From: an uncultured Bacteriovoracaceae bacterium
Lineage (GTDB): Bacteria > Bdellovibrionota > UBA1018
Direction: 5' to 3'
Length of the DNA stretch: 64,000 nucleotides
Assembly: GCA_964364175.1 (NCBI GenBank)
Contig: CAYILR010000002.1
Coordinates: 69,357-133,356, forward strand
The position numbers were made by a program, and so were the translations under genes. Under the pieces are notes generated by a model. It did not search any database. It worked only from the letters and a program-made list of their open reading frames with translations, and was not told the origin of the DNA. Positions 530 through 55,078 of this stretch are shown one piece after another (position 1 is the stretch's first letter; the number at the start of each line of letters is the position of its first letter).

Positions 530-558
530 TTGACATTTTTTTTTGACTTCAGTATGGT
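530..558 (+). promoter_or_regulatory. candidate sigma70-type promoter (TTGACA, 17-bp spacer, TATGGT)
   Basis: TTGACA at 530-535, then a 17-bp T-rich spacer and TATGGT at 553-558, directly upstream of ATG 567. The short distance to the ATG and the weak -10 keep confidence low. Confidence 0.25.
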
Positions 559-566
559 CGGTTGAA

Positions 567-1808: not shown

Positions 1809-1827
1809 CAGCTCCTTGGGATTTTTC

Positions 1828-3396
1828 ATGCTTATGAAGTCACAAAAATATTTACGCCCATTCTTGCTCTGTCTCTTTCCAATGTGTTTTTTGCTAGCTC
1901 TTCCTTCCATCATCAACTGGCGCGGTCCGTACTACCTGGGAGGAAATTCGGACCCGGATTACGCCTATCTTATGAATTCAATGGCGGTTCGCCATGGATT
2001 TCCACCCGGCCATTGGGATCACCCAGGGACCACAATACAAGGTCTGGGTGGAATCACGCTTCTGCTTGGACATTTGGGGAACTCAGCGGATCAAATTCTC
2101 GCCCAGGTTGTACACAATCCGGAAAAAATCATGCTCGAACTCGTTTGGACCCTTTCGGTCATATGTGCTGCCATCATTTTTGCTTCAGGATGGTTGATGA
2201 CGATCGCAACAGGCAACGTATCATTGGGGATTTTTTTTCAACTGGTCCCATTTTTAGTTCGGTCCACCTGGGTTCAGGTGGGGAGATTGACTCCAGAAAT
2301 TCTAACTCTATCGCTCACGATGCTCCTTGCTTCTCTCACTTTTCACAAGGTCTATAGTCGACGAGGCTGTTGGTACAATAGTCCCTATTTCCTGGGGGTC
2401 ATCACGGGACTCGTCCTAACCACCAAAATTACTGGCCTACCATTGATCATTTTGCCTCTTTATTTCATTCGCAATAATTTACGTGCCTTAATCAAATTCT
2501 CTGTCGGAGCCACACTCTGCGGGCTTTTAGTGATTCTCCCTGTCATCAACACAGCGATCAAAACTTTTGTTTATTATTTTGGGCACTGGATATTCACAAT
2601 TGGTACTCACCAGGGGAGTTATGGCGAGGGTAGCGGGATCAAGGCTTTGTCTCTGGAGACAGTCATTCGATCATTGGAAAGCCTTGCTATTTCTGCGCCC
2701 TTTTTAACCGGGACCCTTCTTTTTGGGATCATTTGGCTGATAGTTTTTCGTTATTCTAGGTCAGTTTTTTTAAAAATTCCTGAGAATAGACAACTGCTCA
2801 TTGCAACTGTTTTGGCTGGCGTTGGCCAGTTTTTGATGGTTTCCAAACAGCCCAACATCCGATACCTCATCCCTGGATTTGTGGCTCAAGGCCTCATCTT
2901 GGTGCTTGCTTTACGAACCTTTAAGAACACCTTTATTAGAGGCGGTTTGACTCTGACAGCATTTTTTCTAGCCATCTGGATACCCTTCGTAAGTCTCGGA
3001 GGAGCGGAAAATGAAAAATTACAACGTGATCAAGACCTGGCACTGATTGACTCCACTCTTAAATTCGCTGGATGTTTTGAAATTCCAACCTACCGCTCGA
3101 CTTCAGTGCCTTTTGCCCTGAGTTTTGGCAATAATTTTACAGGTCTGCGCTTTTCAAAAGCACTTGCAGAAGCCTACCCCGATTACCTCAGCTACAATCC
3201 AAGCGAAGGACTCCTCGATTTTGACAGAAGAGTTCTGAACCCAGAGAAAATAAAATCGTCAGGTCGAAAATTTTGTATACGGGGTTGGAAGTCAACCGTT
3301 CCCCCAAAATCCGTTTCAAATTTTATGACCTACCAAGAGATTCTCACTACTCAATCAGATGACTCTTTGTTTTTGGTTGAATGGAAATCAAACTAG
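1828..3396 (+). CDS. polytopic membrane protein, GT-C (ArnT/PMT, GT39/83)-like glycosyltransferase; start moved to ATG 1828 (the ORF track starts at GTG 1768, overlapping the upstream gene)
   Basis: Many predicted TM helices. Acidic loop 'GGNSDPDYAY' after TM1. Large size. Lies in a locus rich in polyprenyl-P-sugar synthases. Confidence 0.45.
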   Translation: MLMKSQKYLRPFLLCLFPMCFLLALPSIINWRGPYYLGGNSDPDYAYLMNSMAVRHGFPPGHWDHPGTTIQGLGGITLLLGHLGNSADQILAQVVHNPEKIMLELVWTLSVICAAIIFASGWLMTIATGNVSLGIFFQLVPFLVRSTWVQVGRLTPEILTLSLTMLLASLTFHKVYSRRGCWYNSPYFLGVITGLVLTTKITGLPLIILPLYFIRNNLRALIKFSVGATLCGLLVILPVINTAIKTFVYYFGHWIFTIGTHQGSYGEGSGIKALSLETVIRSLESLAISAPFLTGTLLFGIIWLIVFRYSRSVFLKIPENRQLLIATVLAGVGQFLMVSKQPNIRYLIPGFVAQGLILVLALRTFKNTFIRGGLTLTAFFLAIWIPFVSLGGAENEKLQRDQDLALIDSTLKFAGCFEIPTYRSTSVPFALSFGNNFTGLRFSKALAEAYPDYLSYNPSEGLLDFDRRVLNPEKIKSSGRKFCIRGWKSTVPPKSVSNFMTYQEILTTQSDDSLFLVEWKSN

Positions 3397-6444: not shown

Positions 6445-8058
6445 ATGGCCATCCTGTGGAAGCGGATTCAGTTATTGGATAGGTATAAATTATCTTTATG
6501 GCTTTTACCCTTCCTATTTTCATTTATTTTCATTCGAATTTACAATTCTTGGGATGTTTTCCTTCTCCCGCACGAAGGTGATGATGGAGGCTATTTTGCT
6601 TACAGTACAGCCCTGCTCCAAACTCACCACTTGAATTGGTGCGCGCCCGAATTTGCAGACAATCCTGGCTTTGCTTCCACCTGTCAGCAACAGGGCAAGC
6701 CTTATAATAACTACTCACCAGGTCCTGCCATCACACTTTTGCCGTTTCAGATTTTTGGTGTTTTGTTGTCCAAATTTGGAATTTTTACACCTACTCAAAC
6801 CAGTCCCTTGATGTTCTGGTGGATTATTGGAAGTTTTTTCCTGCTTTTTTTCTCCGTTTTACTTCTTTTTGAAATAGCCAATTTGCTAGTTAAAAATCGT
6901 TCTTATGCGTTTTGGACCACGGTTTTTTTTTCTACCGGTAACATTGTTCTTTATTACGTTTACCGAAGACCACTGATGGCTCATTGCTCTGAGTTTTTTT
7001 TGTTTTTCTTATCCGTTTATCTATTACTCAAAAACAGGATGTTCGTTTTGGGTTTGTCGATCGGTCTTTTGATCATCACTCGATACAACAACGCTTATTT
7101 GGGATTGATGGCAGCAGCGTTGGTTTTTTTCGCTCAAACCTCGCCCCAGAAAAAAATTCAAAATCTTACTTTTCTCGCCCTGGGAGTTTTGCCTGCGATT
7201 TTTGTTTTTTTCCTCAACCAATATCTTCAAACGGGATCCCTGATTTATAAAACTACTCAATACGGACCCGAATTTTCACTATTGGGAATGTTAGCCTTGC
7301 GAGCTTCAAATATTCGAAGAATTTTTGATTTTTTTATGGGACCTCACTGGGGAGTGTTTTGGTTGATGCCATTTTTTTTCATCGAAGTTTGGATACTCGC
7401 TAGAATTGCAAAGAAAAGTTCTTCTCGAATCTGGAAAAACAAAACCACTCTGATTTCTCTGATTTTGATTAATTTTTTTTATTTAAACATGATTGCCAAC
7501 TTGCCTAATCACATGTCTTACGGATTCAGAATTCTCATTCCCACGTATTGTACGCTGCACCTGGCATTTCTTTGGGTGCTCTCGTTTCAATCACCTCAAG
7601 AAGCATTTCCGAAAAAATATATCTTTGCAGGATGTGTGACTGCAGTGCTTGCGATTTTCAATCTCAATAACTTCGAATCCAACTCAGATACATTGACCCT
7701 GACTCCTCACCCATCCATTGAGGCTGGGGTTTACCGACAAGAGTTCAGAGACCGTGTTGTAATCGATGCCCCCAACTATGCATTTCACTCACTCAAGCAT
7801 ACCATCACCGGAAAGGCTTTGACCTCACTCGCAGTCACTCCACTGGCTGCATATCCTCTGATGGCTGTTGCAGAAAACCCAAGGATTCAAGGAAATGCCC
7901 TGGCTTCAAAGACATTGGCTTACTATCAGTCACCCAAAAGAAAAATCGAGGATCTGAAAGATCTGACTCTTTTGTTTCAGTATCAAATTGTTTTTTTAGT
8001 TTTTCTAATTCTGGGTGGACTATTTCTTATTTTGTCCAAAATCATAATCAGAAAATGA
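6445..8058 (+). CDS. polytopic membrane protein, GT-C-like glycosyltransferase candidate
   Basis: More than 10 hydrophobic segments. Acidic loop 'LLPHEGDDGGYFAY' after TM1. 537 aa. Confidence 0.4.
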   Translation: MAILWKRIQLLDRYKLSLWLLPFLFSFIFIRIYNSWDVFLLPHEGDDGGYFAYSTALLQTHHLNWCAPEFADNPGFASTCQQQGKPYNNYSPGPAITLLPFQIFGVLLSKFGIFTPTQTSPLMFWWIIGSFFLLFFSVLLLFEIANLLVKNRSYAFWTTVFFSTGNIVLYYVYRRPLMAHCSEFFLFFLSVYLLLKNRMFVLGLSIGLLIITRYNNAYLGLMAAALVFFAQTSPQKKIQNLTFLALGVLPAIFVFFLNQYLQTGSLIYKTTQYGPEFSLLGMLALRASNIRRIFDFFMGPHWGVFWLMPFFFIEVWILARIAKKSSSRIWKNKTTLISLILINFFYLNMIANLPNHMSYGFRILIPTYCTLHLAFLWVLSFQSPQEAFPKKYIFAGCVTAVLAIFNLNNFESNSDTLTLTPHPSIEAGVYRQEFRDRVVIDAPNYAFHSLKHTITGKALTSLAVTPLAAYPLMAVAENPRIQGNALASKTLAYYQSPKRKIEDLKDLTLLFQYQIVFLVFLILGGLFLILSKIIIRK

Positions 8059-8469
8059 AACGGGCCAATCATCCGGCTCTTCGGGAGTCCATGCGGGTGA
8101 TGGCATGTTGAGAATGTAGGCATCATTGTTTCCAATATTCACTAGTGCCGAGGGAACATCCGCCGGAACTTGAATCGTGGCAAATCCATGGTCCTCACCA
8201 CTGAAATATTCTTGGTACTCATTATTCACGCGGGTAACAATTTTGATATTTCCTTTGATGCAGGTAAAAAGACCCCATCTTTTCTTATGTAAGTGTGGTC
8301 CTTTAATCTCTCCCGGTGTCGCCACTGTGCAATACACCTGCCAAGGCCACTGATCTTTTTCTGTGAAATTTTCATGCCGGTTGAAAACAGGAATCAAAAA
8401 ACCATTTGGCTTACCTTCAATGTTTTTTGTCACGATCTTAGGATTAGTTTTGGTTTTAATTCCAGCCAT
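8020..8469 (-). CDS. WxcM/FdtA-like cupin, putative NDP-4-keto-6-deoxy-sugar 3,4-ketoisomerase
   Basis: Small cupin carrying 'KGPHLHKK', matching the FdtA/WxcM 'RGxHxHK' motif. Last gene of a GT2-aminotransferase-GT2 operon on the minus strand. Confidence 0.55.
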   Translation of the reverse strand: MAGIKTKTNPKIVTKNIEGKPNGFLIPVFNRHENFTEKDQWPWQVYCTVATPGEIKGPHLHKKRWGLFTCIKGNIKIVTRVNNEYQEYFSGEDHGFATIQVPADVPSALVNIGNNDAYILNMPSPAWTPEEPDDWPVSFSDYDFGQNKK

Positions 8470-8476
8470 AAAAAAA

Positions 8477-9280
8477 CTACGTCAACCTTTCTGAAACATG
8501 AGGAGGATGGGCTGAATCATACTTGTCGGGCAGAGCCTTGAGAAATACTTCCGAAGGTGACGTCAATAGATTAAATCTTACCAAATGAAATAGTGCGGCT
8601 ATTCCATCTTTCCAATTAATTTTCTTACCCTGCAGCTTGGTTCGCGGATAGTAGTGAATGGGCAATTCAAAAATACGTGCTTTTGTTTTGGCTACATATG
8701 CTGTGAGTTCAATCTCAATCCCAAATCTTTTGGATCTAAGATTCATGGTCTTGATTAAATCCGATTTAAAAACCTTGTAGCAAGTCTCCATATCAGTCAG
8801 GTAAATCCCGGACAAAAGATTGCTGAGAAAAGTCAAAAATCGATTCACAAAATAATGATAAGTTCGATGCACCTGCATCACATTTTGTTTAAATCGACTT
8901 CCATAAACCACGTCTGCTCGATTGGATAAAATAGGTTCCAGCAATAAAGGAATATCCCTCGGATCATACTCAAAATCTGCGTCCTGGATAATAATGATGC
9001 TTCCCGAAGCTTGACTCACTCCTTTTGCAATTGCACTTCCTTTGCCCTGATTTCTCTCTTGCTCAAGAAGTATGAACCCATACTGCTGCTGCTTCGTTCG
9101 CAAAATTTCTCGCGAATTATCCGTGGAGCAATCATCAATAAAAATCCACTCGCGCTGAATCGGACAGGGCGCTTGCATCAAATAGTCGATAACCTCGGGT
9201 AAAACACTTTCTTCGTTGTACACAGGAACGATCACAGACAGTGTGTGCAAATCACCTGCTGTATTTTTACCAGACTCCAT
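8477..9280 (-). CDS. glycosyltransferase family 2 (DPM1/ArnC-like polyprenyl-phosphate sugar synthase type)
   Basis: 'LSVIVPVYNEE' N-terminal signature. 'DADFEYDP' and 'VVYGSRF' motifs typical of GT2 DPM1-like enzymes. Confidence 0.8.
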   Translation of the reverse strand: MESGKNTAGDLHTLSVIVPVYNEESVLPEVIDYLMQAPCPIQREWIFIDDCSTDNSREILRTKQQQYGFILLEQERNQGKGSAIAKGVSQASGSIIIIQDADFEYDPRDIPLLLEPILSNRADVVYGSRFKQNVMQVHRTYHYFVNRFLTFLSNLLSGIYLTDMETCYKVFKSDLIKTMNLRSKRFGIEIELTAYVAKTKARIFELPIHYYPRTKLQGKKINWKDGIAALFHLVRFNLLTSPSEVFLKALPDKYDSAHPPHVSERLT

Positions 9281-10378
9281 TTAGCTCACCGCTTTTCGAA
9301 CCATTTTTATAACTTGATCTTGATCGGTCTCACCCAAATACGGATGCATCGGCAGACTTAAGACACGCTGAGCCGCTGCCTCGGAGACAGGCAACGACCC
9401 CACTGGAAATCGATCCGAACGGAACGCTGGCTGCATGTGCGCTGCTAGCGGATAGTGAACTGCAGTGGGAACCCCCTGTTCGTTGAGTCTTTTGGAAACC
9501 ACGTCCCTCTCGTCAACCTGAATCGTATACTGAGCGTAAACATGTGTATTGCCGGGTGCAATCGCAGGAACAACAACCCCTTTTATTTTTGCTAGCTCCG
9601 CAGAATACCGCGCTCCAATTTTTCCACGGCTTTCCACTTCGCTCTCCAAAACTTCTAGTTTCGCCAAAAGTATCGCTGCTTGAAGAGTATCAAGACGACT
9701 ATTCATTCCCAATATCCGATGGTAGTAGCGTTTCTCTTGTCCATGTGTACGAATCGACCTCATCCGAGCCGCCAATCCGTCATCATAAGTAAAACACGCT
9801 CCACCATCGCCATAACACCCCAAGGTCTTCGAGGGGAAAAAACTCGCAGTGGAAACCAAAGTCATCGAACAAGAACGTTTCCCCTGATGTTTGGCTCCAA
9901 AGCTCTGAGCCGCATCCTCGATCACAGGTATTCCATGTTTTTTTGCTATCGGCGTGATCGAAGAGAAATCCGCACATTGACCATACAGGCTCACTGGCAT
10001 AATCGCCTTGGTTCGAGGCGTGATGGCCGCTTCGATTTTTCGGGGATCCAAGTTGTAGGTCGCGGGATCAATATCTACAAAAACAGGCGTCGCACCCACC
10101 ATTAAAATCATCTCGGCATTGGCTGCAAACGTGAACGAAGTGGTGATCACCTCATCCCCCGCTCCAATTCCCAATGCCATCAGAGCGATCTGAATCGCAT
10201 CGGTGCCATTTGCAACTCCGACGCAATGTTTGATCCCCACATACTCCGCGAGCTTTTGCTCAAGCTCGGCAACTTCGGGACCCATGATGTACTGCCCATG
10301 ATCCAAAACACGCCGCATTCTCTCGTCCAGACGTGAGCGGATTTTTTTCTGTTGTGTGGCTAGATCGATGAAGTCCAT
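9281..10378 (-). CDS. wbpE: UDP-2-acetamido-2-deoxy-3-oxo-D-glucuronate aminotransferase (WbpE-like DegT-family enzyme); start taken at MDFIDL (10378)
   Basis: Near-colinear match to WbpE from memory: 'FIDL..Q...I', 'DHGQYIMGPEV', 'ITPRTKAIMPVSLYGQCADF', 'IPVIEDAAQSFGA', 'NSRLDTLQAAILL', 'VPTAVHYP', 'SLPMHPYL'. Confidence 0.8.
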   Translation of the reverse strand: MDFIDLATQQKKIRSRLDERMRRVLDHGQYIMGPEVAELEQKLAEYVGIKHCVGVANGTDAIQIALMALGIGAGDEVITTSFTFAANAEMILMVGATPVFVDIDPATYNLDPRKIEAAITPRTKAIMPVSLYGQCADFSSITPIAKKHGIPVIEDAAQSFGAKHQGKRSCSMTLVSTASFFPSKTLGCYGDGGACFTYDDGLAARMRSIRTHGQEKRYYHRILGMNSRLDTLQAAILLAKLEVLESEVESRGKIGARYSAELAKIKGVVVPAIAPGNTHVYAQYTIQVDERDVVSKRLNEQGVPTAVHYPLAAHMQPAFRSDRFPVGSLPVSEAAAQRVLSLPMHPYLGETDQDQVIKMVRKAVS

Positions 10379-10397
10379 TTGCCTGCTTCCTCTCTTG

Positions 10398-11144
10398 CTA
10401 AGAACGAGTGAGAGCACCCCGTAAATCCGGTTTAGCCGGAGAAAAAAATGCTCCCCGGATAATGGCGAGCAAAACAGGGATCATATGATGGGCTCGGATC
10501 TTCTTACCCTCTTCGTAAGATCTCCCATGATAGTTGATCGGAGTTTCATAGAAAGATTTCCCCCTAGAAACAACCAAGGTCAATATTTCAGCATGCTGCT
10601 CCCAACCTCGTGTTCGCAGCTCGGACGGAACAATCAACTCACGCCTGAACAAAGCATAGCAAGAGTAAATATCAGTGAAGGTGGTATTGAATAGAATATT
10701 AAAAACAAAATTTAAAACACGGTTCCCGAATCGGTGCCAATAATAAAAAACTCGAGTATAGGAAGGGGCCAAAAATCGGCTCCCAATCACCAAATCAGCA
10801 TTGAACTCTACTACTGGCTTCAATAATTTATAATACTCGCTGGGGTCATACTCCAAGTCCGCATCTTGGAACAAAACATAGTCCCCGGTTGCTGCCTCTA
10901 GCCCCGCAATAACCGCGGCCCCTTTTCCACCATTTTTTGGAAGTGCGATGAACTGATCGTAAAGCTGCGGGTTGGCTCGAAGCAACTTTGCTGACTGATC
11001 GGTGGAGCCATCGTCGACGGCAATGATTTCGGTATGGAAATCCTCTGACTTCTGCTCACGAACACGGGTCAATATTTCTAAAACTGTCTTTTCTTCGTTG
11101 TACAGGGGTACGATGACCGATACTTTGACAGAGGTGTTTTTCAC
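10398..11144 (-). CDS. glycosyltransferase family 2 (DPM1/ArnC-like)
   Basis: 'VSVIVPLYNEE', 'VDDGSTD', 'QDADLEYDP' and 'VIGSRF' motifs. Confidence 0.8.
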   Translation of the reverse strand: MKNTSVKVSVIVPLYNEEKTVLEILTRVREQKSEDFHTEIIAVDDGSTDQSAKLLRANPQLYDQFIALPKNGGKGAAVIAGLEAATGDYVLFQDADLEYDPSEYYKLLKPVVEFNADLVIGSRFLAPSYTRVFYYWHRFGNRVLNFVFNILFNTTFTDIYSCYALFRRELIVPSELRTRGWEQHAEILTLVVSRGKSFYETPINYHGRSYEEGKKIRAHHMIPVLLAIIRGAFFSPAKPDLRGALTRS

Positions 11145-11202
11145 GGGAAAGGGATAACATTCTGGGCTAGCCTCGTCACTTGAAATGTTGTAGGCATTCA
11201 GA

Positions 11203-11604
11203 ATGAACCATCCTAAAAATCCAATTGTCGTACTTGAAACTCCCTTTGAAGATGCAAGAGGCGGAATTCAGCCGCTAGTGGACGAAGATATGAAGAGCGC
11301 CGTCCTGATCAGCTCAAAAAAAGGCACGATCCGGGCCAATCACTATCACAAAACAGATTGGCATTATTGCTACGTCCTCTCTGGATCCATCGATTATTTT
11401 TATCGCGCTGTAGGAAGCACGGATAAACCTCAGCGAGTTCTGATCCAACCGAAACAGCTTTTTTTCACGCCTCCGATGCTGGAACACGCCATGTGCTTCC
11501 CGGAGGATACTGTTTTCCTTTGCTTGGGAAAGAATTCACGTGAACAAAAATCCTATGAGGCTGATATCGTCCGGGTCCAACTGGTTCCCCAATATCCGCT
11601 GTGA
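11203..11604 (+). CDS. WxcM/FdtA-like cupin (second copy), putative sugar ketoisomerase or epimerase
   Basis: 133-aa cupin with 'RANHYHKT' (the HxHK motif). Translationally coupled by a 4-bp overlap to the C-methyltransferase. Confidence 0.5.
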   Translation: MNHPKNPIVVLETPFEDARGGIQPLVDEDMKSAVLISSKKGTIRANHYHKTDWHYCYVLSGSIDYFYRAVGSTDKPQRVLIQPKQLFFTPPMLEHAMCFPEDTVFLCLGKNSREQKSYEADIVRVQLVPQYPL

Positions 11605-12851
11605 GTAGCCCATTGAGTTTTCAACGAAAAACCTGCAGGCTTTGTGATTCGAAAAAAATCAAGCTTGCGCTTTCGCTAGCCAAGACCCCGCCCGCGAACG
11701 CTTTTGTTCCGGCCAATCAGTTGCAGCACGAGCAAGATCGATATCCGTTGGATATAGGTTTTTGTGAGTCTTGCCAGCACGTTCAGCTACTAGAAGTCGT
11801 CAGCCCCGAGGTGCTTTTTAGAGACTACGTTTATGTCTCAGGAACATCACCTGTGTTCGTTGAACACTTCAAAAAATACGCTGAATACGTTCAATCTGAT
11901 TTCAAACTTTCACCCAGTGCGTTCGTATTTGAAATTGGCAGCAACGATGGCACGTTGCTCAGCTTCTTTAAAAAGTCAGGGTGTTCCGTCTTGGGTGTCG
12001 ATCCTGCATTAAAAATTGCAGAAGACGCCACCGCTCGAGGGATTCCAACTTTGCCTCGCTTTTTCTCGTCCAGCCTCGTCGATGAGGTCCTGACAAACCA
12101 TCCTCAACCGAAAGTCATTATCGCGAACAACGTATTTGCTCACATTGATGATCTCGATGAGGTTGCCAGAGGCGTCTGCAAGCTCTTGGACCCAAACGAG
12201 GGAATTTTCGTCATTGAATTTTCCTATTTGGCGGATGTGATTGAAAAAAATCTTTTCGATACCATTTATCACGAACACCTTTGCTATCACTCGCTCAAAC
12301 CCCTGCGTCAGTTTTTTCAAAAACATGGCATGGAAGTCATCGATACGCTCCGGGTTCCTAGTCATGGAGGTTCGCTTCGCGTAGTTGCACAGGTGAAGGG
12401 AGCCCGACGACCTGTTTCTGACCGAGTAGAAAGCCTAATTGCGTTCGAGAAGACTGCAGGGTTGTATGAATTTTCCACTTTTCAAAATTTCGGAAAATCA
12501 ATCGAGCGAATTGGCATCGAGTTAAAAGGAATACTAACTCAATTAAAATCCCAAGGGAAATCCATTGCGGGATTCGGGGCACCAGCCAAGGCAACCACAC
12601 TCATGTATCAATTTGGCATCGGACCTGAGATCGTGGATTTCATCATCGACGATAGTCCGCTCAAGCAGGGTTTGTTCACTCCGGGATTTCATATTCCCGT
12701 TTTGTCATCGAATGCCATTCGAGAACGAAAGCCTGATTACTTGGTTTTGTTAGCTTGGAATTTTGCTGATTCAATTATTGCAAAAAATTCGGACTATTTG
12801 GCTCAGGGAGGGCATTTTATTGTGCCTCTTCCACGAGTTCAAGTAGTGTGA
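11601..12851 (+). CDS. NDP-hexose C-methyltransferase (TylCIII/EvaC-like): zinc ribbon + class I SAM MTase + C-methyltransferase C-terminal domain
   Basis: N-terminal 'CRLCDSKK...CESCQHV' zinc-binding pair. SAM motif 'VFEIGSNDGTLL'. About 410 aa, typical of sugar 3-C-methyltransferases. Confidence 0.75.
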   Translation: MSSPLSFQRKTCRLCDSKKIKLALSLAKTPPANAFVPANQLQHEQDRYPLDIGFCESCQHVQLLEVVSPEVLFRDYVYVSGTSPVFVEHFKKYAEYVQSDFKLSPSAFVFEIGSNDGTLLSFFKKSGCSVLGVDPALKIAEDATARGIPTLPRFFSSSLVDEVLTNHPQPKVIIANNVFAHIDDLDEVARGVCKLLDPNEGIFVIEFSYLADVIEKNLFDTIYHEHLCYHSLKPLRQFFQKHGMEVIDTLRVPSHGGSLRVVAQVKGARRPVSDRVESLIAFEKTAGLYEFSTFQNFGKSIERIGIELKGILTQLKSQGKSIAGFGAPAKATTLMYQFGIGPEIVDFIIDDSPLKQGLFTPGFHIPVLSSNAIRERKPDYLVLLAWNFADSIIAKNSDYLAQGGHFIVPLPRVQVV

Positions 12852-12867
12852 CAGAAGGGATCATACG

Positions 12868-13929
12868 ATGAATGGTTTTTTTATTCCCAATGACATTCGT
12901 GAAATTACAGACGGTCTGAGTGATTGTGCCTCGCTTTTGGAGGGCAAAACAATCATTCTGACCGGCGGAAGAGGATTTTTGGGGCGCTACTTTGTTGAGG
13001 TTTTTCGCGATCTCAATCAACGCGTCCTGAAGAAGCCCTGCAAAATCATTGTCTTTGACAATCTCATCACCGCTGGAAAAACAGGTGAAGCGATTCAGGA
13101 TCTCGAGGGCGTTCAATTCTTGAAACAGGATGTGATTCAACCATTCACCTATGACGGCCCTGTCGATTACATTTTGCACGCAGCTGGGATCGCCAGCCCT
13201 TATTATTACCGTGCGTATCCTCTTGAAACTCTGGACGTCGCCATCACAGGAACCCGCAATGCGCTGGAACTGGCTCGCAAAAAGCACGCTCGCTTCGTGT
13301 TTTTCAGCAGCAGCGAAATTTATGGCAATCCGGATCCTGCAAATGTTCCAACGACCGAGAGTTACAATGGATACGTCTCCTGCCTGGGAGCTCGGGCCTG
13401 TTATGACGAGAGTAAACGCGTGGGGGAAACACTTTGCACGATTTACCACGGCCAGTTTGGCGTTCACACGAATATGATCCGCCCGTTCAATGTCTTTGGC
13501 CCAGGAATGCAGGAAAGTGACTATCGAGTACTTCCTAATTTTGCGTCCAGAATTGCCGGCAAGAGGCCATTGAAAATTTATGGGGATGGAACTCAGACCC
13601 GAACGTTTTGTTACATCACCGATGCAATCAATGGCTTTATCCGCGTGATGGTGAAGGGTGTAGCTCGAGAGCCCTACAATATCGGGAACCCGACTCCAGA
13701 AATTTCCATGGTAGATCTGGTCAAAGAAATCGAAAAAATCAAAAAAACACCCGTTCAACTCGACTTGATTGCCTATCCGGATTCCTATCCAGCCGATGAG
13801 CCACTGAGACGCTGTCCGGATATCAAAAAAGCAAAGCTGCAATTGAATTATGCTCCCCAGGTTTCGTTGCAGGAAGGGTTGAGCCGGTTTCTTTCTTGGA
13901 CGACCGAAAACTACACGGGACAGCAGTAG
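12868..13929 (+). CDS. UDP-glucuronate decarboxylase (UXS / ArnA-decarboxylase family SDR)
   Basis: 'GGRGFLG' Rossmann. 'SSSEIYG'. 'GARACYDESKRVGETLC' matches UXS 'GPRACYDEGKRVAETMC'. 'RCPDIKKAKLQLNY' matches UXS 'RKPDIKKAKLMLGW'. Confidence 0.85.
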   Translation: MNGFFIPNDIREITDGLSDCASLLEGKTIILTGGRGFLGRYFVEVFRDLNQRVLKKPCKIIVFDNLITAGKTGEAIQDLEGVQFLKQDVIQPFTYDGPVDYILHAAGIASPYYYRAYPLETLDVAITGTRNALELARKKHARFVFFSSSEIYGNPDPANVPTTESYNGYVSCLGARACYDESKRVGETLCTIYHGQFGVHTNMIRPFNVFGPGMQESDYRVLPNFASRIAGKRPLKIYGDGTQTRTFCYITDAINGFIRVMVKGVAREPYNIGNPTPEISMVDLVKEIEKIKKTPVQLDLIAYPDSYPADEPLRRCPDIKKAKLQLNYAPQVSLQEGLSRFLSWTTENYTGQQ

Positions 13930-13937
13930 GCTCTCTG

Positions 13938-14873
13938 GTGCTTCCTCTCGGACTAATCGGCGCAGGGCCTTGGGGTCAAAACTTCATCAAAACCATCGCC
14001 CGTCTCCCTGGTTTTGAGTTGATCACGTTGGCATCTCAAAATGAACATGCTCAGTCTTGGGTCACTCCTTCGTGCACAGTAACCCCGGATTGGCACGAGG
14101 TTCTTGAAAATCGGCGCTTAGCTGGGGTGATTATCGCAACACCTCCCCATTGCCGGGCCGAGATCATGAAAGCCGCAATTGAGAAACGAATCCCGATTCT
14201 GGCCGAAAAACCTGTCACTTTGTCTCTGGCGGAAATCCAGGAGCTTGAAGCGCTCGAAAAGAAGTTTCAGTCAAAAATCCTGGTTGATCATATTCATCTT
14301 TTTCATCCCGCATATAAAAAACTGAAGCAAACACTCTCGGATCGGGGACTCTCTATCCTCAAGGTGGCTTCTGAGGGAGGAAATCACGGTCCCCTTCGCA
14401 ACTATTCCAGCTTATGGGATTGGGGGCCTCACGATCTTGCTTTTGGCTTTGATTTAGCGGGAACAACCTCTCTCGCTCAAAAAAAAGTCTCTTCATACGG
14501 AGAAAATCCCGCCGGAAATGCTTTCGCAGGAAATTTCCTCTTCACACTGGATTTTGAAAATGAAATTCACACCGAACACAAATTTGGCAATTTATTCACG
14601 GAAAAAACCAGGAAGCTTTCCGTCGAAACAGATCGTGGCACGTTCCTATTGAATGATCTATCCATTGACAGGAAACTCACGTTTCAAGGTGAAAAAGGAG
14701 ATTCCACTGTTTTGGATTTTGAAGCCGGATCGGCAATGGAGCATCTTTTGCTCGAGTTCAAAAAAGGCATTCTCGAGAAGCCTTCATCCCGATTTGGACT
14801 ATCCCTGGCAACACAGATCAGCTATCTTTTGTCGTGGGCAGAAAGTAGGTTGAAACGTAATGAGCCGCGATAG
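13938..14873 (+). CDS. Gfo/Idh/MocA-family NAD(P)-dependent oxidoreductase; start taken at GTG 13938 (the ORF track uses an in-frame ATG at 13896 that overlaps the UXS gene)
   Basis: 'LIGAGPWGQNF' dinucleotide-binding N-terminus and an 'AEKP' motif typical of the family. Confidence 0.65.
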   Translation: MLPLGLIGAGPWGQNFIKTIARLPGFELITLASQNEHAQSWVTPSCTVTPDWHEVLENRRLAGVIIATPPHCRAEIMKAAIEKRIPILAEKPVTLSLAEIQELEALEKKFQSKILVDHIHLFHPAYKKLKQTLSDRGLSILKVASEGGNHGPLRNYSSLWDWGPHDLAFGFDLAGTTSLAQKKVSSYGENPAGNAFAGNFLFTLDFENEIHTEHKFGNLFTEKTRKLSVETDRGTFLLNDLSIDRKLTFQGEKGDSTVLDFEAGSAMEHLLLEFKKGILEKPSSRFGLSLATQISYLLSWAESRLKRNEPR

Positions 14874-14912
14874 TGTTTTGCTTAATTTAGCTATTTTGTT
14901 GGGCGGCCTGGG

Positions 14913-16520
14913 TTGGATCCTCTACAGAGCATGGGCTTTTTTCCCAAAACTGAGATAATGCTCACCCTCGCATATTTTCCGACACTTCTTTGGTTTTTAG
15001 GTTTTTTAGAATTTCACATCCAAATTCTTTTTTTTGGCCCCACACAACACGCTACTGGAGTCAGCGTTTATCTTTCACTTCTCTGCGCACTATTTTTCGC
15101 GATTAAAAAATATCCGAACATTCGAGCGGATTTTAATAAAATCCGTTCTGAAGTGATCTCCGCACCGATTTGGTTTTGGCTTTTGTTAGTCATCACCATT
15201 CTCATTGTGCTGATGGGAGGCTTTGAGTCCCGACTGCCGCCGCATCTCATTCAAGAAAGAGATGCAATCAATTACCACATGACTATTCCTTATCAGCACT
15301 TGCTACAGGGCAGTCTTGCTCATCTCAAGTGGTCTGTTGCTGATCTATGGCCCATGTCGATCCAGTTTGGATTAACTCCGGCTTGGACAATGACCCGGCA
15401 TTTTCAAAAATTTCCGCAATATATTTTTTCTGTCTGGTCGCTCTGGCTTGCCATCAGCCTCGGCCGTAGACTGTATCCTCACTCTTATTTGGGTTGGATC
15501 CCGGCACTCGCCGTATTCACGACCCATGGAGTATCCATGTGGTTTGGGAACGCCACATTGGAGCTCGTCAATTTCTATTTTCTATTGGCATTCGTTCATA
15601 GTTTTTTTATCTCACCCTGGATTGCCGCTTTGCACCTCGCTCTGTTTGCAACAGCCAAAGTCATTAATATTTTCTTTGTGGGATTCAGCTGCGTCATGAT
15701 CACCACGTTTTATTTTTTCACTCAAAAAGAATTACTCTATCTATTCATAAAAAAAAATATTCGTATATTTTTGATCGCTTTTGTTTTCGCACTAATTCTA
15801 TTGTCTCGCTCGATGTGGGTCAGCTTGGAGCGTGTGGGAACGCCCGTTTTTCCCTTCGCTCCTTGCTTGTTTTCCTCTTTTCCAGGCTGCCAAGGCCCAT
15901 TGCTGAAAGAGAGCCTCTATGCGGCAGAGCTGATGGTCCGAGCGCGAGATGGTTTTGGAGTGGCAACTGCTGGTAGAAATCTCACTGGTTTTTTAACTCA
16001 TCTCTGGAAGGTCTCTGTGCCCGATTGGGGAAGTACAACCAATGAGTTTGTTCACCCTCTGGGAATGGCTTGGGTGCTTTGGGTCATCTTGGCCTTTGCT
16101 CATTTGTGGGGGTGGATCAAAAAGAAGCAAGCCCTCGGTTTTTATTTTATTTTAGCTATTTCATTTTGGGGGATCTGGTGGCTGGGTAGCCAACAAGCAC
16201 GCTGGCTCATCCCAACGCTTTTCTTGGGTTGGCTGGGCACTAGCCACTTACAAAAAAAAATCCATCCACTTCTCTTGGGAATATTGATCACAGCCTCAGC
16301 AAGCTTCTCCCTGATCTCTTTGGTCCGTGCCTATGGCTGGGCTCAAAACGATCCATCGGTACGTCTATTGGCCACCTCTGAGGAAATTGAGGCTCAGGAA
16401 AAAAGCAAATTGGTTTGGGATCCAAAGACGGGATACATTACTTCAGAAGAAATACTCTACGTTTCAGAGCCTGTGATTCATCATGGCAGCCGTCAAAGAG
16501 TATGGTTCTTCGAAAACTAA
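14913..16520 (+). CDS. polytopic membrane protein, GT-C-like glycosyltransferase candidate
   Basis: 535 aa with more than 10 hydrophobic segments, an acidic loop 'QERDAINYH' early on, and a C-terminal soluble region. Confidence 0.4.
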   Translation: MDPLQSMGFFPKTEIMLTLAYFPTLLWFLGFLEFHIQILFFGPTQHATGVSVYLSLLCALFFAIKKYPNIRADFNKIRSEVISAPIWFWLLLVITILIVLMGGFESRLPPHLIQERDAINYHMTIPYQHLLQGSLAHLKWSVADLWPMSIQFGLTPAWTMTRHFQKFPQYIFSVWSLWLAISLGRRLYPHSYLGWIPALAVFTTHGVSMWFGNATLELVNFYFLLAFVHSFFISPWIAALHLALFATAKVINIFFVGFSCVMITTFYFFTQKELLYLFIKKNIRIFLIAFVFALILLSRSMWVSLERVGTPVFPFAPCLFSSFPGCQGPLLKESLYAAELMVRARDGFGVATAGRNLTGFLTHLWKVSVPDWGSTTNEFVHPLGMAWVLWVILAFAHLWGWIKKKQALGFYFILAISFWGIWWLGSQQARWLIPTLFLGWLGTSHLQKKIHPLLLGILITASASFSLISLVRAYGWAQNDPSVRLLATSEEIEAQEKSKLVWDPKTGYITSEEILYVSEPVIHHGSRQRVWFFEN

Positions 16521-17269
16521 TTCCACTCTGTAACGGCCAACAAAGATTGCCCGATAGGCACCTTGAGTGAACGATGAATCCACTGATCTACGCCCTTGAT
16601 ATAAGGGCACAGCCTATCGAATAGATCAATACTGGTAGGATCAATGATCTGCTTGCTGAGAATTTTTCCGCTCACCAACCAACCGAGCAGCCCCACCAAA
16701 TTGAAATATTGAAAAGTCGTTTTTGCATGCACCGGAACTACTGTTTTCAGCAGGGCATCCAAGCCTTCTGCAGAATAGCGCCTGAAATGTCCATAATTCT
16801 TGTCAAAAGATCCATAGGCCCACTGATGGGCTGGCACGAATGTAATGATTTTTTTTATATTTTTTTGGTTTGGGTTCTCTAGAATACAAACCAGTTTTTG
16901 TAAAACTTCTCGATCATTTTCGATATGCTCCAGAACATTGAAAGAAATAATCGTATCCAGGTTTTCTTTTTTTAAAATATTCAGATCATCTCTGGTTAAA
17001 TCAAATTGGATCACTGATGAGCGTGAATTGCTGAGCAATGCAGAATTTTGCTCAGCATGATTGAATTGCTGGATTAAATTCGGATCACGCTCAGAAACAA
17101 TCAACCGTTCGCGGATGGGCAGCCATTTAGACATATTACCGATGCCAGCCCCGATTTCTAAAATCCTTTCTCCCAAATACGGCTGAATCGTTTCAAAAAT
17201 CCATTTTTGATAATTTTCTGCCCTGGCCAATGAATCCAGTTCGAAAGGTAAATCTGAAGCTGTTTCCAT
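16517..17269 (-). CDS. class I SAM-dependent methyltransferase
   Basis: 'ILEIGAGIGNMS' motif I and 'ISFNVLEHI' motif. Confidence 0.7.
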   Translation of the reverse strand: METASDLPFELDSLARAENYQKWIFETIQPYLGERILEIGAGIGNMSKWLPIRERLIVSERDPNLIQQFNHAEQNSALLSNSRSSVIQFDLTRDDLNILKKENLDTIISFNVLEHIENDREVLQKLVCILENPNQKNIKKIITFVPAHQWAYGSFDKNYGHFRRYSAEGLDALLKTVVPVHAKTTFQYFNLVGLLGWLVSGKILSKQIIDPTSIDLFDRLCPYIKGVDQWIHRSLKVPIGQSLLAVTEWN

Positions 17270-17271
17270 GG

Positions 17272-17886
17272 CTATTGATTTCTCTTCAAAATACTGGGCT
17301 CAACCTCCACATAGCGAGTCTGAGTTTCAGGACACACCCACTCTCCAGATTTTGAACCAGGGACCAACCGCTCACCATATTCGCCCATCCATCCTATCCG
17401 TCGTGCGGGTACGCCCACCATCAATCCGTAAGCTGGAACATCTTGAGTCACCACTGCCCCGGCTCCGACAAACGCATGCTCACCAATAGTCACACTGCAG
17501 ACCACTGTGCAATTTGCTCCGAGTGTGGCTCCCCGACGCACCACTGTATCCAGATACTGATCTTTTCTCGATACCGCTGAACGAGGATTAATCACATTGG
17601 TAAAAACCATGCTAGGTCCGCAAAAAACATCATCTTCAAGTGTCACATTGTCATACACAGAGACGTTGTTTTGAATTTTGACATTGTTTCCAATGACAAC
17701 TTTGTTGCCCACAAAAACGCCTTGTCCCAAAGAACAACGCTCACCAATTCGAGCGCCACCACAGATATGCGCCCAATGCCAAATTCGAGTCCCCGCACCG
17801 ATTTGAGCGCCTGGATCCACAATTGCCGTAGAGTGAACTTGAAAGTCGTCAGCCATGCCACTTTCTAGCCCATTTTGAAAAACCAA
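17272..17886 (-). CDS. wbpD: left-handed beta-helix (hexapeptide) N-acetyltransferase, WbpD/PglD-like (UDP-2-acetamido-3-amino-2,3-dideoxy-glucuronate N-acetyltransferase candidate); true start may be the internal ATG at 17856
   Basis: Tandem hexapeptide repeats ('[49 protein letters not shown]') and a size of about 190-200 aa. Confidence 0.7.
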
Positions 17887-20078: not shown

Positions 20079-21062
20079 TCAGTAGTCGGCTATGGCCCGG
20101 TATCGATCCTTTACACAGTTCAAGTATTTTTTCTTAAGATCCTCATTTAAATAACTAGTATTAATGAGATCAAACACTTGGTCTTTAAGACTCATGGTTT
20201 TTCCTAAAAACGGCACTATTGCGATACTCGGCACTCCAACACGTCGACCAAGCTCAAAGAAATCATGCTGAGTATAAAAACCAAACTTTTCGTATTGAGG
20301 CGTGTTAGTGCCATCAATAAATAATTCTTGTAGTGCAAATTGCTGCTCTACTGGGTTGTAAATATTGGTGTTAACACTATCGTAGTTGGGTGAAAGATCC
20401 TGATATTTTCCGTCTTCTGTAAGTGCGACTAAACTAATATTTTTTAGATGATAATCACCATTTCCGATGAGGAAGTTGTAAATAAGTCTCTCTAGAAAAC
20501 GCAACAGAACAGCCTTTTTACCACCGCAAGCTTTAAGAATTGTATTCCCGACTTCTTCATAACTACCAGAATACTTGAAATTACCACCATCATCACGCTC
20601 TCTACCTAGTATTTGCGCAAGGTCTTCCTGATCAATCTTTTGTCCTTGAACGCGGTCAAAGCGCTTTACAATATATGCATTTTCCCCATTCTTAAAGGTA
20701 ATAAGACCAGACTCTGCCGTTTGGATTCCGAGAAGTTTTCCTATTTGCATCGAAAGATGTTCATTTTCGCTCAACTCTTCGTATTCCTGTGGGGTTGGTT
20801 TAAGGATGTATGTACCACCCACATCTGTCGGTACAATTTGTGTACCCTCAATCTTCACAGAAAGTTTTTGCTGCATTCCAGAAATCGACATTTTTTGTGT
20901 ATATTTCCGTGCCATTGTTGAACTAAACTCTTTTTTATCGAAAGAAAGAGTTGGGGAAATTTCGGACGATCCAAAAAGCGCAAGAATACATTTGTCGTGA
21001 TATCCTGCAAACTTAGTCTTTTGATTTATGAGCACTTGCCTTAAACAAATTTTGCAGATCAT
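20079..21062 (-). CDS. hipT: HipT-like serine/threonine kinase toxin (HipA C-terminal kinase core only)
   Basis: 'ISGMQQKLSV' matches the HipA 'AGxQxK' loop. 'FLIGNGDYHLKNISL' matches the HipA catalytic motif 'GNxDxHxKN'. Low GC relative to flanks. 4-bp overlap with the upstream small gene. Confidence 0.7.
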   Translation of the reverse strand: MICKICLRQVLINQKTKFAGYHDKCILALFGSSEISPTLSFDKKEFSSTMARKYTQKMSISGMQQKLSVKIEGTQIVPTDVGGTYILKPTPQEYEELSENEHLSMQIGKLLGIQTAESGLITFKNGENAYIVKRFDRVQGQKIDQEDLAQILGRERDDGGNFKYSGSYEEVGNTILKACGGKKAVLLRFLERLIYNFLIGNGDYHLKNISLVALTEDGKYQDLSPNYDSVNTNIYNPVEQQFALQELFIDGTNTPQYEKFGFYTQHDFFELGRRVGVPSIAIVPFLGKTMSLKDQVFDLINTSYLNEDLKKKYLNCVKDRYRAIADY

Positions 21063-21391
21063 ATTTTATTTTCTGGATCAGCCAACACAGAAACCGCTCC
21101 AACCAGATCCTGTCCATTATTTATTAAAAGTGAAAAAAAATCACGCTCATCAATTTTCTGAATTCTCGACTGCTGGTGCTTGAGCCAACCCTCAGCAATT
21201 AATCCATCAAAAAATGGAAAAAGCCGCTCAGAAAAAAATGGTTCGACCTGCAAGGGAAACGAAATGCTGATTGGATGTGCTTCACTAGACGCCAAATAAT
21301 CAGCATTATAGCGAAACTCATAAGACGATTCGCCATGTTTCACCAATTCACCAGCCACCGCATTATTGTGTAAAACTTTTGCTCTCATCAT
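21059..21391 (-). CDS. hipS: HipS-like small protein (homolog of the HipA N-terminal subdomain)
   Basis: 110 aa, 'LHNNAVAGELVKHGESSYEFRYNADY' resembles the HipA N-terminal (couple_hipA) domain. Sandwiched between hipB and hipT with 4-bp overlaps, which is the HipBST order. Confidence 0.6.
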   Translation of the reverse strand: MMRAKVLHNNAVAGELVKHGESSYEFRYNADYLASSEAHPISISFPLQVEPFFSERLFPFFDGLIAEGWLKHQQSRIQKIDERDFFSLLINNGQDLVGAVSVLADPENKI

Positions 21392-21696
21392 TTAATCCAG
21401 AATGATTTTCCTAGTGCGGACAACACCTTCTCAACATTTTCAAAAGACACTCTTCGATTTCCTGCTTCAAGTTTTGCAATCGTCAAAGTACTCAGGCCAG
21501 TTAACGCGGCAAGTTGTTTTTGGCTGAGGCTTTGGTCTGCGCGAGCAATTTTGATGGCTTTTCCTAAGTTACTAGTAGGTTCAAAACTGCTTTTGTTCAC
21601 CATCGATATTTGAGTGTTTTGCTGCTTTATAGCTTGGTCTAGTTGCTTAAGCAGATCATTAAGATTTATCTGTTTATTTTTTTCCATAGTTTCCAT
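21388..21696 (-). CDS. hipB: HipB-like XRE-family HTH protein
   Basis: 'LSQKQLAALTGLSTLTIAKLEAGNRRVSFENVEKVLSALG' is a classic HTH_XRE. First gene of the three-gene module. Confidence 0.7.
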   Translation of the reverse strand: METMEKNKQINLNDLLKQLDQAIKQQNTQISMVNKSSFEPTSNLGKAIKIARADQSLSQKQLAALTGLSTLTIAKLEAGNRRVSFENVEKVLSALGKSFWIK

Positions 21697-22962: not shown

Positions 22963-22964
22963 GG

Positions 22965-27542: not shown

Positions 27543-27596
27543 TTTACTCTTTTAATTGACGACATGCCCTAATTCAAAGTACAAAAAAACATCTTT

Positions 27597-39019: not shown

Positions 39020-39096
39020 AGCAAGCCTGACCGTACAACAGATAAATTCGTCTAATCAAGCGTTACTCCAGCTATTTTTGAATCATCACCAATCTA

Positions 39097-40065: not shown

Positions 40066-40451
40066 GCATGAATCTCCTCGGCTTCATTTTCGGTTGGGTC
40101 AACGGTTTTTGTTCTGAGTAAATACTGTGCATGAAGTCGAGCCAGATTCAGGCCACGTGATGCGCATTGCTTCAAACTCAGAGTATTTTTGTAAGAAAGA
40201 TAGGTATCGGTAGTTTTCAATAAAGCTTCGGCCTTTGAAAAGGTAGTCTGAGTATCTTTTTCCATCTCAGCGACGAGGATGCGATTGCAATGCACTTCCT
40301 CTGCGGCTTGAGCTTGATCGAGATTGCTGATGATCGAGGACAAACTTGCCATGAGCTGCATGACGTCCTCATAGGTCAAGGCGGTGAGCCGATTCAAAAT
40401 CAGCTCTTGTTTCTCGATCACAGCGGCTCGGAGTTTCAACGGATCTGCCAT
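40062..40451 (-). CDS. hypothetical small protein (129 aa), translationally coupled to the TPR-like gene
   Basis: 4-bp overlap with the downstream gene on the same strand. Helical, no recognisable family. Confidence 0.35.
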   Translation of the reverse strand: MADPLKLRAAVIEKQELILNRLTALTYEDVMQLMASLSSIISNLDQAQAAEEVHCNRILVAEMEKDTQTTFSKAEALLKTTDTYLSYKNTLSLKQCASRGLNLARLHAQYLLRTKTVDPTENEAEEIHA

Positions 40452-45952: not shown

Positions 45953-45978
45953 GGCCCCAGCATTATACGGTTTCGGGC

Positions 45979-55062: not shown

Positions 55063-55078
55063 ACGACCTCCGGGATTA

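Follow-up and report, generated by a model that had tools for sequence, protein, structure and literature searches.

Which sugar is made where a C-methyltransferase typical of deoxysugar biosynthesis stands next to a decarboxylase of pentose metabolism? C-branched sugars are rare in surface glycans, and to our knowledge all those that receive their branch as a methyl group from S-adenosylmethionine (SAM) derive from 6-deoxyhexoses. The question is raised by a 64,000-nucleotide stretch of contig CAYILR010000002.1 from an uncultured Bacteriovoracaceae bacterium, referred to here as the window. A first-pass annotation had described four plus-strand genes in it, encoding a cupin, a TylC3-type nucleoside diphosphate (NDP)-sugar C-methyltransferase, a UXS-type SDR (short-chain dehydrogenase/reductase) of the extended type and a Gfo/Idh/MocA oxidoreductase, and had proposed that the methyltransferase acts on a 4-keto-pentose released by the SDR rather than on a hexose supplied by rmlAB. 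The locus probably represents a conserved cassette, disseminated by horizontal transfer, that would make a C-methylated pentose and pass it to a lipid carrier.

All four genes are present where they had been placed and are tightly packed. According to the list of open reading frames (ORFs) and the public gene calls, the plus strand between 11203 and 16520 carries five closely spaced genes. The GTG start of the C-methyltransferase gene at 11601 overlaps the cupin stop by 4 nt, the gap between the C-methyltransferase and SDR genes is 16 nt, and a gene for a family 2 glycosyltransferase (GT2, 10398-11144) diverges 58 nt upstream of the cupin gene. Co-transcription of the cassette is what we infer from this spacing; a consensus scan of 10800-17400 for promoters and terminators returned fewer sites than in shuffled sequence. 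The public gene call of the C-methyltransferase starts at an internal ATG (11853), which gives a protein of 332 aa that has lost the zinc ribbon. The Gfo/Idh/MocA ORF reaches back to a TTG at 13896, and its public gene call begins at 13938.

The arrangement is encountered far beyond this genome. A scan of one genome per species with two subfamily-specific peptide patterns recovered at least 596 confirmed methyltransferase loci, and gene order was counted in the best 80 of these, the denominators being the loci with enough flanking sequence. The 80 loci come from Alphaproteobacteria (Magnetospirillum, Paramagnetospirillum and many Rhodospirillales), Verrucomicrobia, Elusimicrobia, Omnitrophota, Tectomicrobia, Chloroflexota, Acidobacteriota, Desulfovibrio and Marinamargulisbacteria, as well as from two Prochlorococcus single-cell genomes and one Nitrosopelagicus archaeon. 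The cupin gene is directly upstream of the methyltransferase gene in 63 of 74 loci, and a UXS-like SDR (53-72% identical) is encoded directly downstream in 51 of 57. A Gfo gene follows the SDR gene in 35 of 54 loci, and the full quartet is found in 33 of 54. The same order recurs across phyla, and the grouping of these genes is thus more than chance. The cassette is widespread and not peculiar to this genome, a point that the first-pass annotation had missed. In the Prochlorococcus loci (L044 and L078) and in the locus of Candidatus Nitrosopelagicus (L051), the cassette is accompanied by a GT2 gene, and the methyltransferases are 51-52% identical to that of the window. A surface-sugar module thus seems to have moved horizontally between domains.

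Which class of substrate the cupin, the methyltransferase and the Gfo enzyme use can be read from two variant cassettes, which amount to natural experiments. In a betaproteobacterial locus (L062), the UXS-like gene is displaced by a gene (L062:8361-9404) whose product scores 649 bits, against a cut-off of 294, with PRK11908, the NCBIfam model for a 'bifunctional UDP-4-keto-pentose/UDP-xylose synthase' of the ArnA-decarboxylase type (UDP, uridine diphosphate). In an acidobacterial locus (L085), a gene for an RmlB-like deoxythymidine diphosphate (dTDP)-glucose 4,6-dehydratase (L085:3681-4619; 325 bits, with the TDE signature) is located between the cupin and methyltransferase genes. The cupin, methyltransferase and Gfo genes are retained in both loci despite the exchange. 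Three unrelated generators of 4-keto sugars occupy one slot, as would be expected if the trio processes an NDP-4-keto sugar, in the window a 4-keto-pentose, and the exchange argues that the UXS-like enzyme of the window would act as a supplier of keto-pentose. The cupin and the methyltransferase are also found as a natural fusion, the 561-aa protein P0256, which is 54% identical to the former and 50% to the latter; other cupins with long N-terminal extensions showed no similarity to window proteins. Synteny, this fusion and the two exchanges support the idea that a TylC3-type methyltransferase acts on a UXS-derived 4-keto-pentose, with the product itself being a prediction.

The methyltransferase can be classified by its domains. 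Over its full length it matches the Pfam families Methyltransf_13 (the zinc ribbon, E 1e-20), Methyltransf_23 (E 3e-14) and Methyltransf_14 (E 1e-54). Among solved structures it is closest to that of the D-mycarose 3-C-methyltransferase MtmC (4rv9, E 1e-99); TcaB9 (3ndi) was matched at E 1e-75, and the alignments with both run from end to end. Among 20 orthologues, the four cysteines of the zinc ribbon (C12, C15, C55 and C58), the SAM motif EIGSNDG and the residues N177, H181, H224, E225 and H226 are invariant, and Y223 is nearly so; the motif FDTIYHEHL is the same in MtmC and in the window protein. The Tyr-His-Glu-His block and the equivalents of His181 and Asn177 presumably have the catalytic roles described for TcaB9. 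The 416-aa protein is thus assigned to the TylC3/TcaB9/MtmC family (PF08421 and PF08484), as had been claimed from its zinc ribbon and SAM domain, and is predicted to methylate an NDP-4-keto sugar. Its relatives number in the thousands, and identities of 57-65% are found in very distant lineages.

The SDR has human UDP-glucuronate decarboxylase UXS1 (hUXS1; 2b69) as its closest solved relative, with an E value of 7e-59. It has a GxxGxxG-type NAD site (GGRGFLG), and its residues S149, E150, Y179, K183, N208 and R245 are the equivalents of Thr118, Glu120, Tyr147, Lys151, Asn176 and Arg277 of hUXS1; among them, S149, Y179 and K183 form the Ser/Thr-Tyr-Lys triad. In the alignment with hUXS1, all six catalytic residues are kept in the window protein and in 20 cassette orthologues; Glu120, Asn176 and Arg277 are the decarboxylation-specific ones of hUXS1. 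The string GARACYDESKRVGETLC, from which a UXS-family decarboxylase had originally been recognised, is present, and the family assignment draws chiefly on the pairwise match to hUXS1. All NCBIfam models score below their cut-offs, for example PRK11908 with 84 bits against 294. A precedent for release of the keto intermediate exists in EvdS6, a UXS-family enzyme that was shown experimentally to release UDP-4-keto-xylose ahead of UDP-xylose (PMC10338323). According to its authors, the ratio of keto product to xylose cannot be read from the structure (PMC10338323).

A source of 4-keto-6-deoxyhexose would be the alternative to this enzyme. Neither an rmlA-like nucleotidyltransferase nor a 4,6-dehydratase was found among the scanned window ORFs of at least 150 aa (all but six, which overlap annotated genes), which agrees with the first description of the window as free of 4,6-dehydratases. 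The two further extended SDRs, 56713-57837 and 58535-59599, are closest to CDP-tyvelose 2-epimerase, and carry STSRVY and TSTNKVYG in place of the TDE (Asp-Glu) dehydratase signature. An rmlAB set just outside the window had been named as one observation that would speak against the proposal; none was found in about 7 kb past the right end or about 5 kb past the left end.

The fourth gene of the quartet encodes a Gfo/Idh/MocA oxidoreductase, as described, with the N-terminal Rossmann domain of this family (PF01408, E 6e-16). Its GxGxxG and EKP motifs are represented by G22, G24, G27, E104 and P106, which are invariant, and by K105, which is nearly so. A profile of 33 orthologues finds 3c1a as its best match in the PDB (E 9e-114), followed by 7bvj (E 3e-33) and by 3rbv, a sugar 3-ketoreductase (E 3e-18). 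The first, deposited merely as a 'putative oxidoreductase', is an orthologue of the cassette enzyme. The second, which bears the entry name 'oxidoreductase', we take to be the UDP-N-acetylglucosamine (UDP-GlcNAc) 3-dehydrogenase GnnA. All Gfo/Idh/MocA enzymes known to us that use nucleotide sugars act at C-3.

The cupin is the weakest element of the four-gene observation. It had been described as WxcM/FdtA-like, which stands for the predicted fold and fails for the sequence. The match to Cupin_2 in Pfam is sub-threshold (20 bits), there is no Pfam match to FdtA (PF05523), and single-sequence and profile searches of the PDB gave weak, generic cupin matches, with WxcM-like proteins only at E 0.05-0.2. 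Membership of the FdtA family was rejected, since an hhalign comparison with the second window cupin, an FdtA-positive paralogue, gave 8% probability and the Pfam match is missing. The predicted structure alone was telling. An AlphaFold (AF2) model built from 43 homologues has a predicted local distance difference test score of 95 and depicts a small cupin with one domain of about 135 aa, whose fold can be superposed on FdtA; the nearest folds to the model are enzymes acting on NDP-4-keto sugars. The cupin is therefore FdtA-like by modelled fold, not by sequence. R19, G20, R44, N46, H47, H49, D52, H54, Y65, H95, R113 and Y118 are invariant in 33 orthologues. They include the motif HxH..D.H...H, which is compatible with the histidine pair of FdtA or with a metal site: H47-Y-H49-K shows a local alignment with the HLHK motif of this paralogue, and together with D52/H54 and H95 it also fits the classical metal-binding cupin motif. 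With E 1e-10 as the limit, 613 matches to the family were found in a set of 1.84 billion representative proteins, and the family is specific to the cassette context.

The cassette is embedded in a predicted polyprenyl-phosphate delivery system with a glycosyltransferase of the GT-C fold, which the first-pass annotation had also missed. The divergent GT2 has a Glycos_transf_2 domain with a QDADLE (DAD) motif. Of the NCBIfam models, AglJ, ArnC and PpgS score highest with it, though short of their cut-offs, and its best PDB matches are the Pyrococcus dolichyl-phosphate mannose (Dol-P-Man) synthase (5mlz, 9e-17) and ArnC (9bhc/8vxh, 2e-15); its closest relatives all make polyprenyl-phosphate sugars. 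Orthologues with 50-65% identity are encoded no more than about 7 kb from the methyltransferase gene in 30 of the 80 loci, mostly directly beside the cassette. Downstream of the Gfo gene, the membrane protein 14913-16520 lacks a Pfam match and has at least eight hydrophobic segments. Its AF2 model (predicted template modelling score 0.81) is a polytopic GT-C fold, and an acidic E115-x-D117 motif in the first extracytoplasmic loop is invariant across seven homologues, one of which is from Candidatus Omnitrophica. This particular GT-C was considered as a conserved member of the cassette and rejected: it has few homologues, three of these are located beside other GT2 and sugar genes, and the polytopic proteins of other cassettes are not related to it. 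Most cassettes do have large polytopic proteins encoded nearby, which fall into several unrelated families and number 87 within 9 kb across the 80 loci. This indicates an Arn-like, two-step polyprenyl-phosphate delivery in which the acceptor-specific GT-C is interchangeable.

On the minus strand, the divergent operon 8020-10417 continues beyond this GT2 with an aminotransferase, a second GT2 and a second cupin (Table 1). GT2a-like genes (35-50% identity) are found in many cassette loci, and the aminotransferase in 5 of 80. The operon may divert the same keto-pentose into a lipid-linked 3- or 4-amino sugar, if the two gene sets do share a pathway.

Table 1. Genes of the cassette and of the adjoining divergent operon, in window coordinates.
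Feature	Coordinates	Strand	Assignment or basis
Small cupin, 133 aa	11203-11604	+	predicted NDP-4-keto-sugar isomerase or epimerase
TylC3/MtmC/TcaB9-type NDP-sugar C-methyltransferase, 416 aa	11601-12851	+	zinc ribbon, class I SAM, C-terminal domain
UXS-type extended SDR, 353 aa	12868-13929	+	predicted UDP-glucuronate (or UDP-N-acetylglucosaminuronic acid, UDP-GlcNAcA) 4-oxidase/decarboxylase supplying UDP-4-keto-pentose
Gfo/Idh/MocA oxidoreductase, 311-325 aa	13938-14873	+	predicted ketoreductase for methylated keto-sugar
GT-C-fold polytopic membrane glycosyltransferase	14913-16520 (535 aa; gene call from 14958, 520 aa)	+	
Dol-P-Man synthase/ArnC-like GT2, 248 aa	10398-11144	-	predicted polyprenyl-phosphate sugar synthase for cassette product
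DegT-type aminotransferase	9281-10417	-	Pfam/NCBIfam matches
Second Dol-P-Man synthase/ArnC-like GT2	8477-9280	-	Pfam/NCBIfam matches
Second small cupin	8020-8469	-	passes Pfam FdtA threshold; HLHK motif

From these parts a pathway of six steps can be proposed. The enzyme families come from the matches given above, and the substrates and the order of steps are what we infer from them. The SDR, a decarboxylase by homology, would oxidise UDP-glucuronic acid (UDP-GlcA) at C-4 and decarboxylate it to a UDP-4-keto-pentose, which would be released. The cupin, with its fold of the FdtA/epimerase type, might then move the carbonyl from C-4 to C-3 or epimerise C-3. The TylC3/MtmC-type enzyme would place the methyl group of SAM on a carbon beside the carbonyl, with the keto-pentose as presumed substrate. 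The remaining ketone would be reduced by the Gfo/Idh/MocA enzyme, or possibly by the NADH of the SDR in cassettes that have no Gfo gene. The divergent Dol-P-Man synthase/ArnC-like GT2 would load the putative donor, UDP-C-methyl-pentose, on polyprenyl phosphate and, after flipping, the protein with the GT-C fold would move the sugar to an acceptor at the surface, which may be lipid A/core, O-antigen or protein. It is tempting to go further and to propose, tentatively and at somewhat less than even chances, a monosaccharide new to glycans: a pentose branched by a SAM-derived C-methyl group, carried by polyprenyl phosphate, displayed by hundreds of species from the environment (Prochlorococcus, magnetotactic spirilla and Omnitrophota among them, along with an ammonia-oxidising archaeon from the sea) and spread horizontally as a module of surface variation.

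Several findings weigh against this pathway. Methylation of a pentose at C-3 leaves no centre that can be epimerised, so that either the role of the cupin or the methylated carbon differs from the mycarose paradigm. One alternative is that the cupin is a 3,4-ketoisomerase, with methylation at C-4 or C-2 beside the 3-ketone and the Gfo enzyme as a 3-ketoreductase, which fits the best fold match of the cupin and the C-3 action of known nucleotide-sugar Gfo enzymes. The other is that the cupin is a 3-epimerase and methylation takes place at C-5 as in noviose, which would give a 6-deoxyhexose and not a branched sugar. The sequence of the SDR fits release of the keto intermediate and release of UDP-xylose only equally well. 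The Gfo gene is missing from some cassettes (L042, L051, L069 and L075), which suggest that the SDR's own NADH can sometimes provide the final reduction. As for delivery, an orthologue of the GT2 is found in 18 of 43 amply flanked loci (about 40%), and three of the 7 detectable GT-C homologues adjoin other GT2 and sugar genes instead of the cassette. Finally, the dehydrogenases encoded near the cassette resemble UDP-GlcNAc/N-acetylmannosamine (ManNAc) enzymes rather than those of the UDP-glucose type, so the substrate might be UDP-GlcNAcA.

Methylation at C-5 would give the cupin a meaningful chemistry on a pentose, which C-3 methylation does not. The cupin would be a 3-epimerase like NovW, the methyltransferase would act at C-5 like NovU, and the Gfo enzyme would reduce C-4 to yield an unbranched UDP-6-deoxyhexose without a 4,6-dehydratase (or, in the RmlB-type variant, a 5,5-dimethyl sugar); the set of 4-keto supplier, cupin, C-methyltransferase and reductase is that of NovT/W/U/S. 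Such a route is nevertheless fairly unlikely, given that the closest characterised relatives, MtmC and TcaB9, are C-3 methyltransferases and that a conserved SAM-consuming route would be odd where 4,6-dehydratases make 6-deoxyhexoses cheaply. Another possibility is a garosamine-like order of events in which the SDR is a plain UDP-xylose synthase, the Gfo enzyme oxidises C-3 and methylation follows at C-4 or C-2; in this genome, the DegT enzyme would aminate the 3-ketone to give a 3-amino-C-methyl-pentose. The presumed GnnA is next after 3c1a in the Gfo profile, the nucleotide-sugar enzymes of this family that are known to us act at C-3, the SDR is nearer to true UXS than to ArnA-type enzymes, and an aminotransferase and a second, FdtA-like cupin are encoded in the divergent operon. 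However, the aminotransferase accompanies the cassette in just 5 of 80 loci, cassettes without Gfo exist, and the exchange of the SDR for an RmlB-like or ArnA-type enzyme fits a 4-keto entry better than a fully reduced sugar, so that xylose as the first product is unlikely.

The starting material could also be UDP-GlcNAcA, with an SDR that resembles the UDP-GlcNAcA decarboxylase of Bacillus cereus and a C-methylated 2-acetamido-2-deoxy-pentose as the product. The window encodes a single nucleotide-sugar dehydrogenase (22965-24281), whose highest scores are with models for UDP-ManNAc and UDP-GlcNAc dehydrogenases and not with those for UDP-glucose dehydrogenase; for the dehydrogenases encoded near the cassette in L005, L009 and L028, TviB is the best model (385-405 bits). 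All of these scores are below the curated cut-offs, though, and such dehydrogenases are encoded within 10 kb of the cassette in just 5 of 80 loci, several genes away. That of the window has a WbpB-like Gfo enzyme (21907-22962) as its partner, a pairing that suggests a diacetamido-uronic acid pathway of its own, and the solved structure closest to the SDR is that of a UDP-GlcA decarboxylase; this origin is improbable. It is very improbable that the genes are coincidental neighbours, in which case the SDR would make UDP-xylose for the surrounding glycan cluster while the methyltransferase and cupin would use a 4-keto-6-deoxyhexose from a distant rmlAB or gmd. The characterised enzymes of the TylC3 family do use 4-keto-6-deoxyhexoses, the survey for rmlAB covered the window and its flanks, and the L085 cassette carries an RmlB-like gene. 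Against this, the adjacency of methyltransferase and SDR is kept across distant phyla in 51 of 57 loci, at identities of 55-72%, the slot of the SDR is filled by an independent keto-pentose synthase in L062, and neither rmlA nor rmlB was found in the 64 kb and flanks. The pathway through a C-methylated 4-keto-pentose is thus retained here as the preferred reading.

The window is rich in other genes of glycan assembly. About a dozen large polytopic membrane proteins with 6-9 hydrophobic segments, most of them without a Pfam match, are encoded at 543-3396, 6445-8058, 25502-30390, 49194-56716 and 59702-63941, in addition to one PMT-like and one GT87 protein. Modules of an SDR, a small GT2 and a membrane protein recur (for example, at 55079-59599), and it seems that the organism operates many glycosylation systems with lipid carriers side by side. 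Two paralogues that resemble Wzy or O-antigen ligase (27597-29030 and 62625-63941) are 46% identical and located 35 kb apart. The full-length Gfo/Idh/MocA and WecC/TviB-like dehydrogenase genes at 21907-24281 (minus strand) resemble the WbpA/WbpB pair of diacetamido-uronic acid pathways, and the hexapeptide acyltransferase 17272-17886 could belong with them. The sugar cluster is interrupted at 20079-21696 (minus strand) by a gene for a HipA-like kinase with two small upstream ORFs, where the GC content is 0.38 compared to about 0.45-0.47 around it; this may be an inserted toxin-antitoxin module. A further minus-strand region, 36639-42158, places a LuxC-type acyl-CoA reductase, a LuxE-type acyl-protein synthetase and an AMP-binding ligase within the glycan cluster, with an MBOAT protein (47995-49158) and a polysaccharide deacetylase (45943-46743) encoded nearby, and suggests acyl or fatty-aldehyde chemistry on the glycan. 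About 1.3-4.5 kb left of the window start (L091:17922-21134), a 698-aa B12-binding radical SAM protein and an HldE-like bifunctional kinase/adenylyltransferase are encoded. The other way in which C-methylated sugars are known to arise is through radical SAM cobalamin enzymes.

If the predicted pathway is correct, the cassette would add a new class of sugar, the methyl-branched pentose, which would be widespread and not exotic, and would extend to ecologically dominant marine microbes. It would be relevant to envelope remodelling of the Arn kind, and to recognition by phages and grazers in picocyanobacteria. The annotation of genes now labelled just 'SAM-dependent methyltransferase', 'cupin' and 'NAD-dependent epimerase' would gain as well. 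The cassette is readily testable, since it consists of four small soluble enzymes, UDP-GlcA, NAD+ and SAM are commercially available, and a cultivable carrier exists in Paramagnetospirillum magneticum; for one component there is already a crystal structure (3c1a), although without an assigned function.

The individual parts of the system are known, namely the TylC3-type methyltransferases, the UXS/ArnA decarboxylases and delivery of the ArnC/ArnT type, and their combination is new to the searched literature. No description of the cassette was found in the searchable full-text literature, where much subscription-journal work is missing. A close parallel for the modification itself is found in the 3-C-methyl deoxysugar pathways (TylC3, EryBIII, MtmC and TcaB9, for mycarose and tetronitrose, and the proposed pathway to virenose in Coxiella), which have the same methyltransferase family with the same domains, zinc site and catalytic block. 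They also share a four-part logic of 4-keto supplier, C-methyltransferase, cupin and ketoreductase. In the mycarose-type pathways, however, the supplier is a 4,6-dehydratase and the intermediate a dTDP- or GDP-linked 6-deoxyhexose, whereas the cassette has a UXS-type decarboxylase and a pentose that is presumably UDP-linked. The reductase is an SDR in the former and a Gfo/Idh/MocA enzyme in the latter, and the sugar goes to the aglycone of an antibiotic or straight to an O-unit instead of the polyprenyl-phosphate carrier predicted here. The noviose pathway (NovT, NovW, NovU and NovS) has the same gene complement as the cassette, but differs in its 4,6-dehydratase-derived hexose, methylation at C-5, SDR reductase and attachment to an aminocoumarin.

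For supply and delivery, the parallel is the Arn pathway (ArnA, ArnB, ArnC and ArnT), which places 4-amino-4-deoxy-L-arabinose (L-Ara4N) on lipid A. It likewise leads from UDP-GlcA to a UDP-4-keto-pentose, uses a GT2 to load undecaprenyl phosphate and a GT-C enzyme for transfer outside the cytoplasm, and the GT2 and GT-C of the cassette structurally resemble ArnC and ArnT. In between, the Arn pathway proceeds by transamination and formylation, and the cassette by predicted C-methylation and reduction; the decarboxylase is of the ArnA type in the former and of the UXS type in the latter, except for variant L062. No formyltransferase domain was found in the scanned window ORFs, and the sole polysaccharide deacetylase is 30 kb away, with no deformylase beside the cassette. 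The locus would work like an Arn system but is not a member of it.

Two further systems with branched sugars can be compared with the cassette. The C4-branched sugar of the Rhodopseudomonas palustris O-antigen was also considered, and is an unrelated, higher-carbon sugar of the caryophyllose type. The bacterial UDP-apiose/UDP-xylose synthase similarly starts from UDP-GlcA and, by way of a 4-keto intermediate, makes a branched pentose in the active site of an SDR; in this case, the branch arises by ring contraction within one enzyme, with no involvement of SAM, a cupin or a Gfo enzyme (PMC5607165). The proposed eurekanate pathway of everninomicin D resembles the cassette in that EvdS6, a UXS-family enzyme, provides UDP-4-keto-xylose as the proposed precursor of a C-branched, pentose-derived sugar, and the 2023 paper on EvdS6 regards such a decarboxylase-initiated branched sugar as unique to everninomicin D (PMC10338323). 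There, a thiamine-diphosphate enzyme adds a two-carbon branch at C-4 within the antibiotic cluster of an actinomycete (PMC10338323). In the cassette, by contrast, the branch would be a methyl group derived from SAM, and the genes belong to a surface-glycan cassette found in many phyla.

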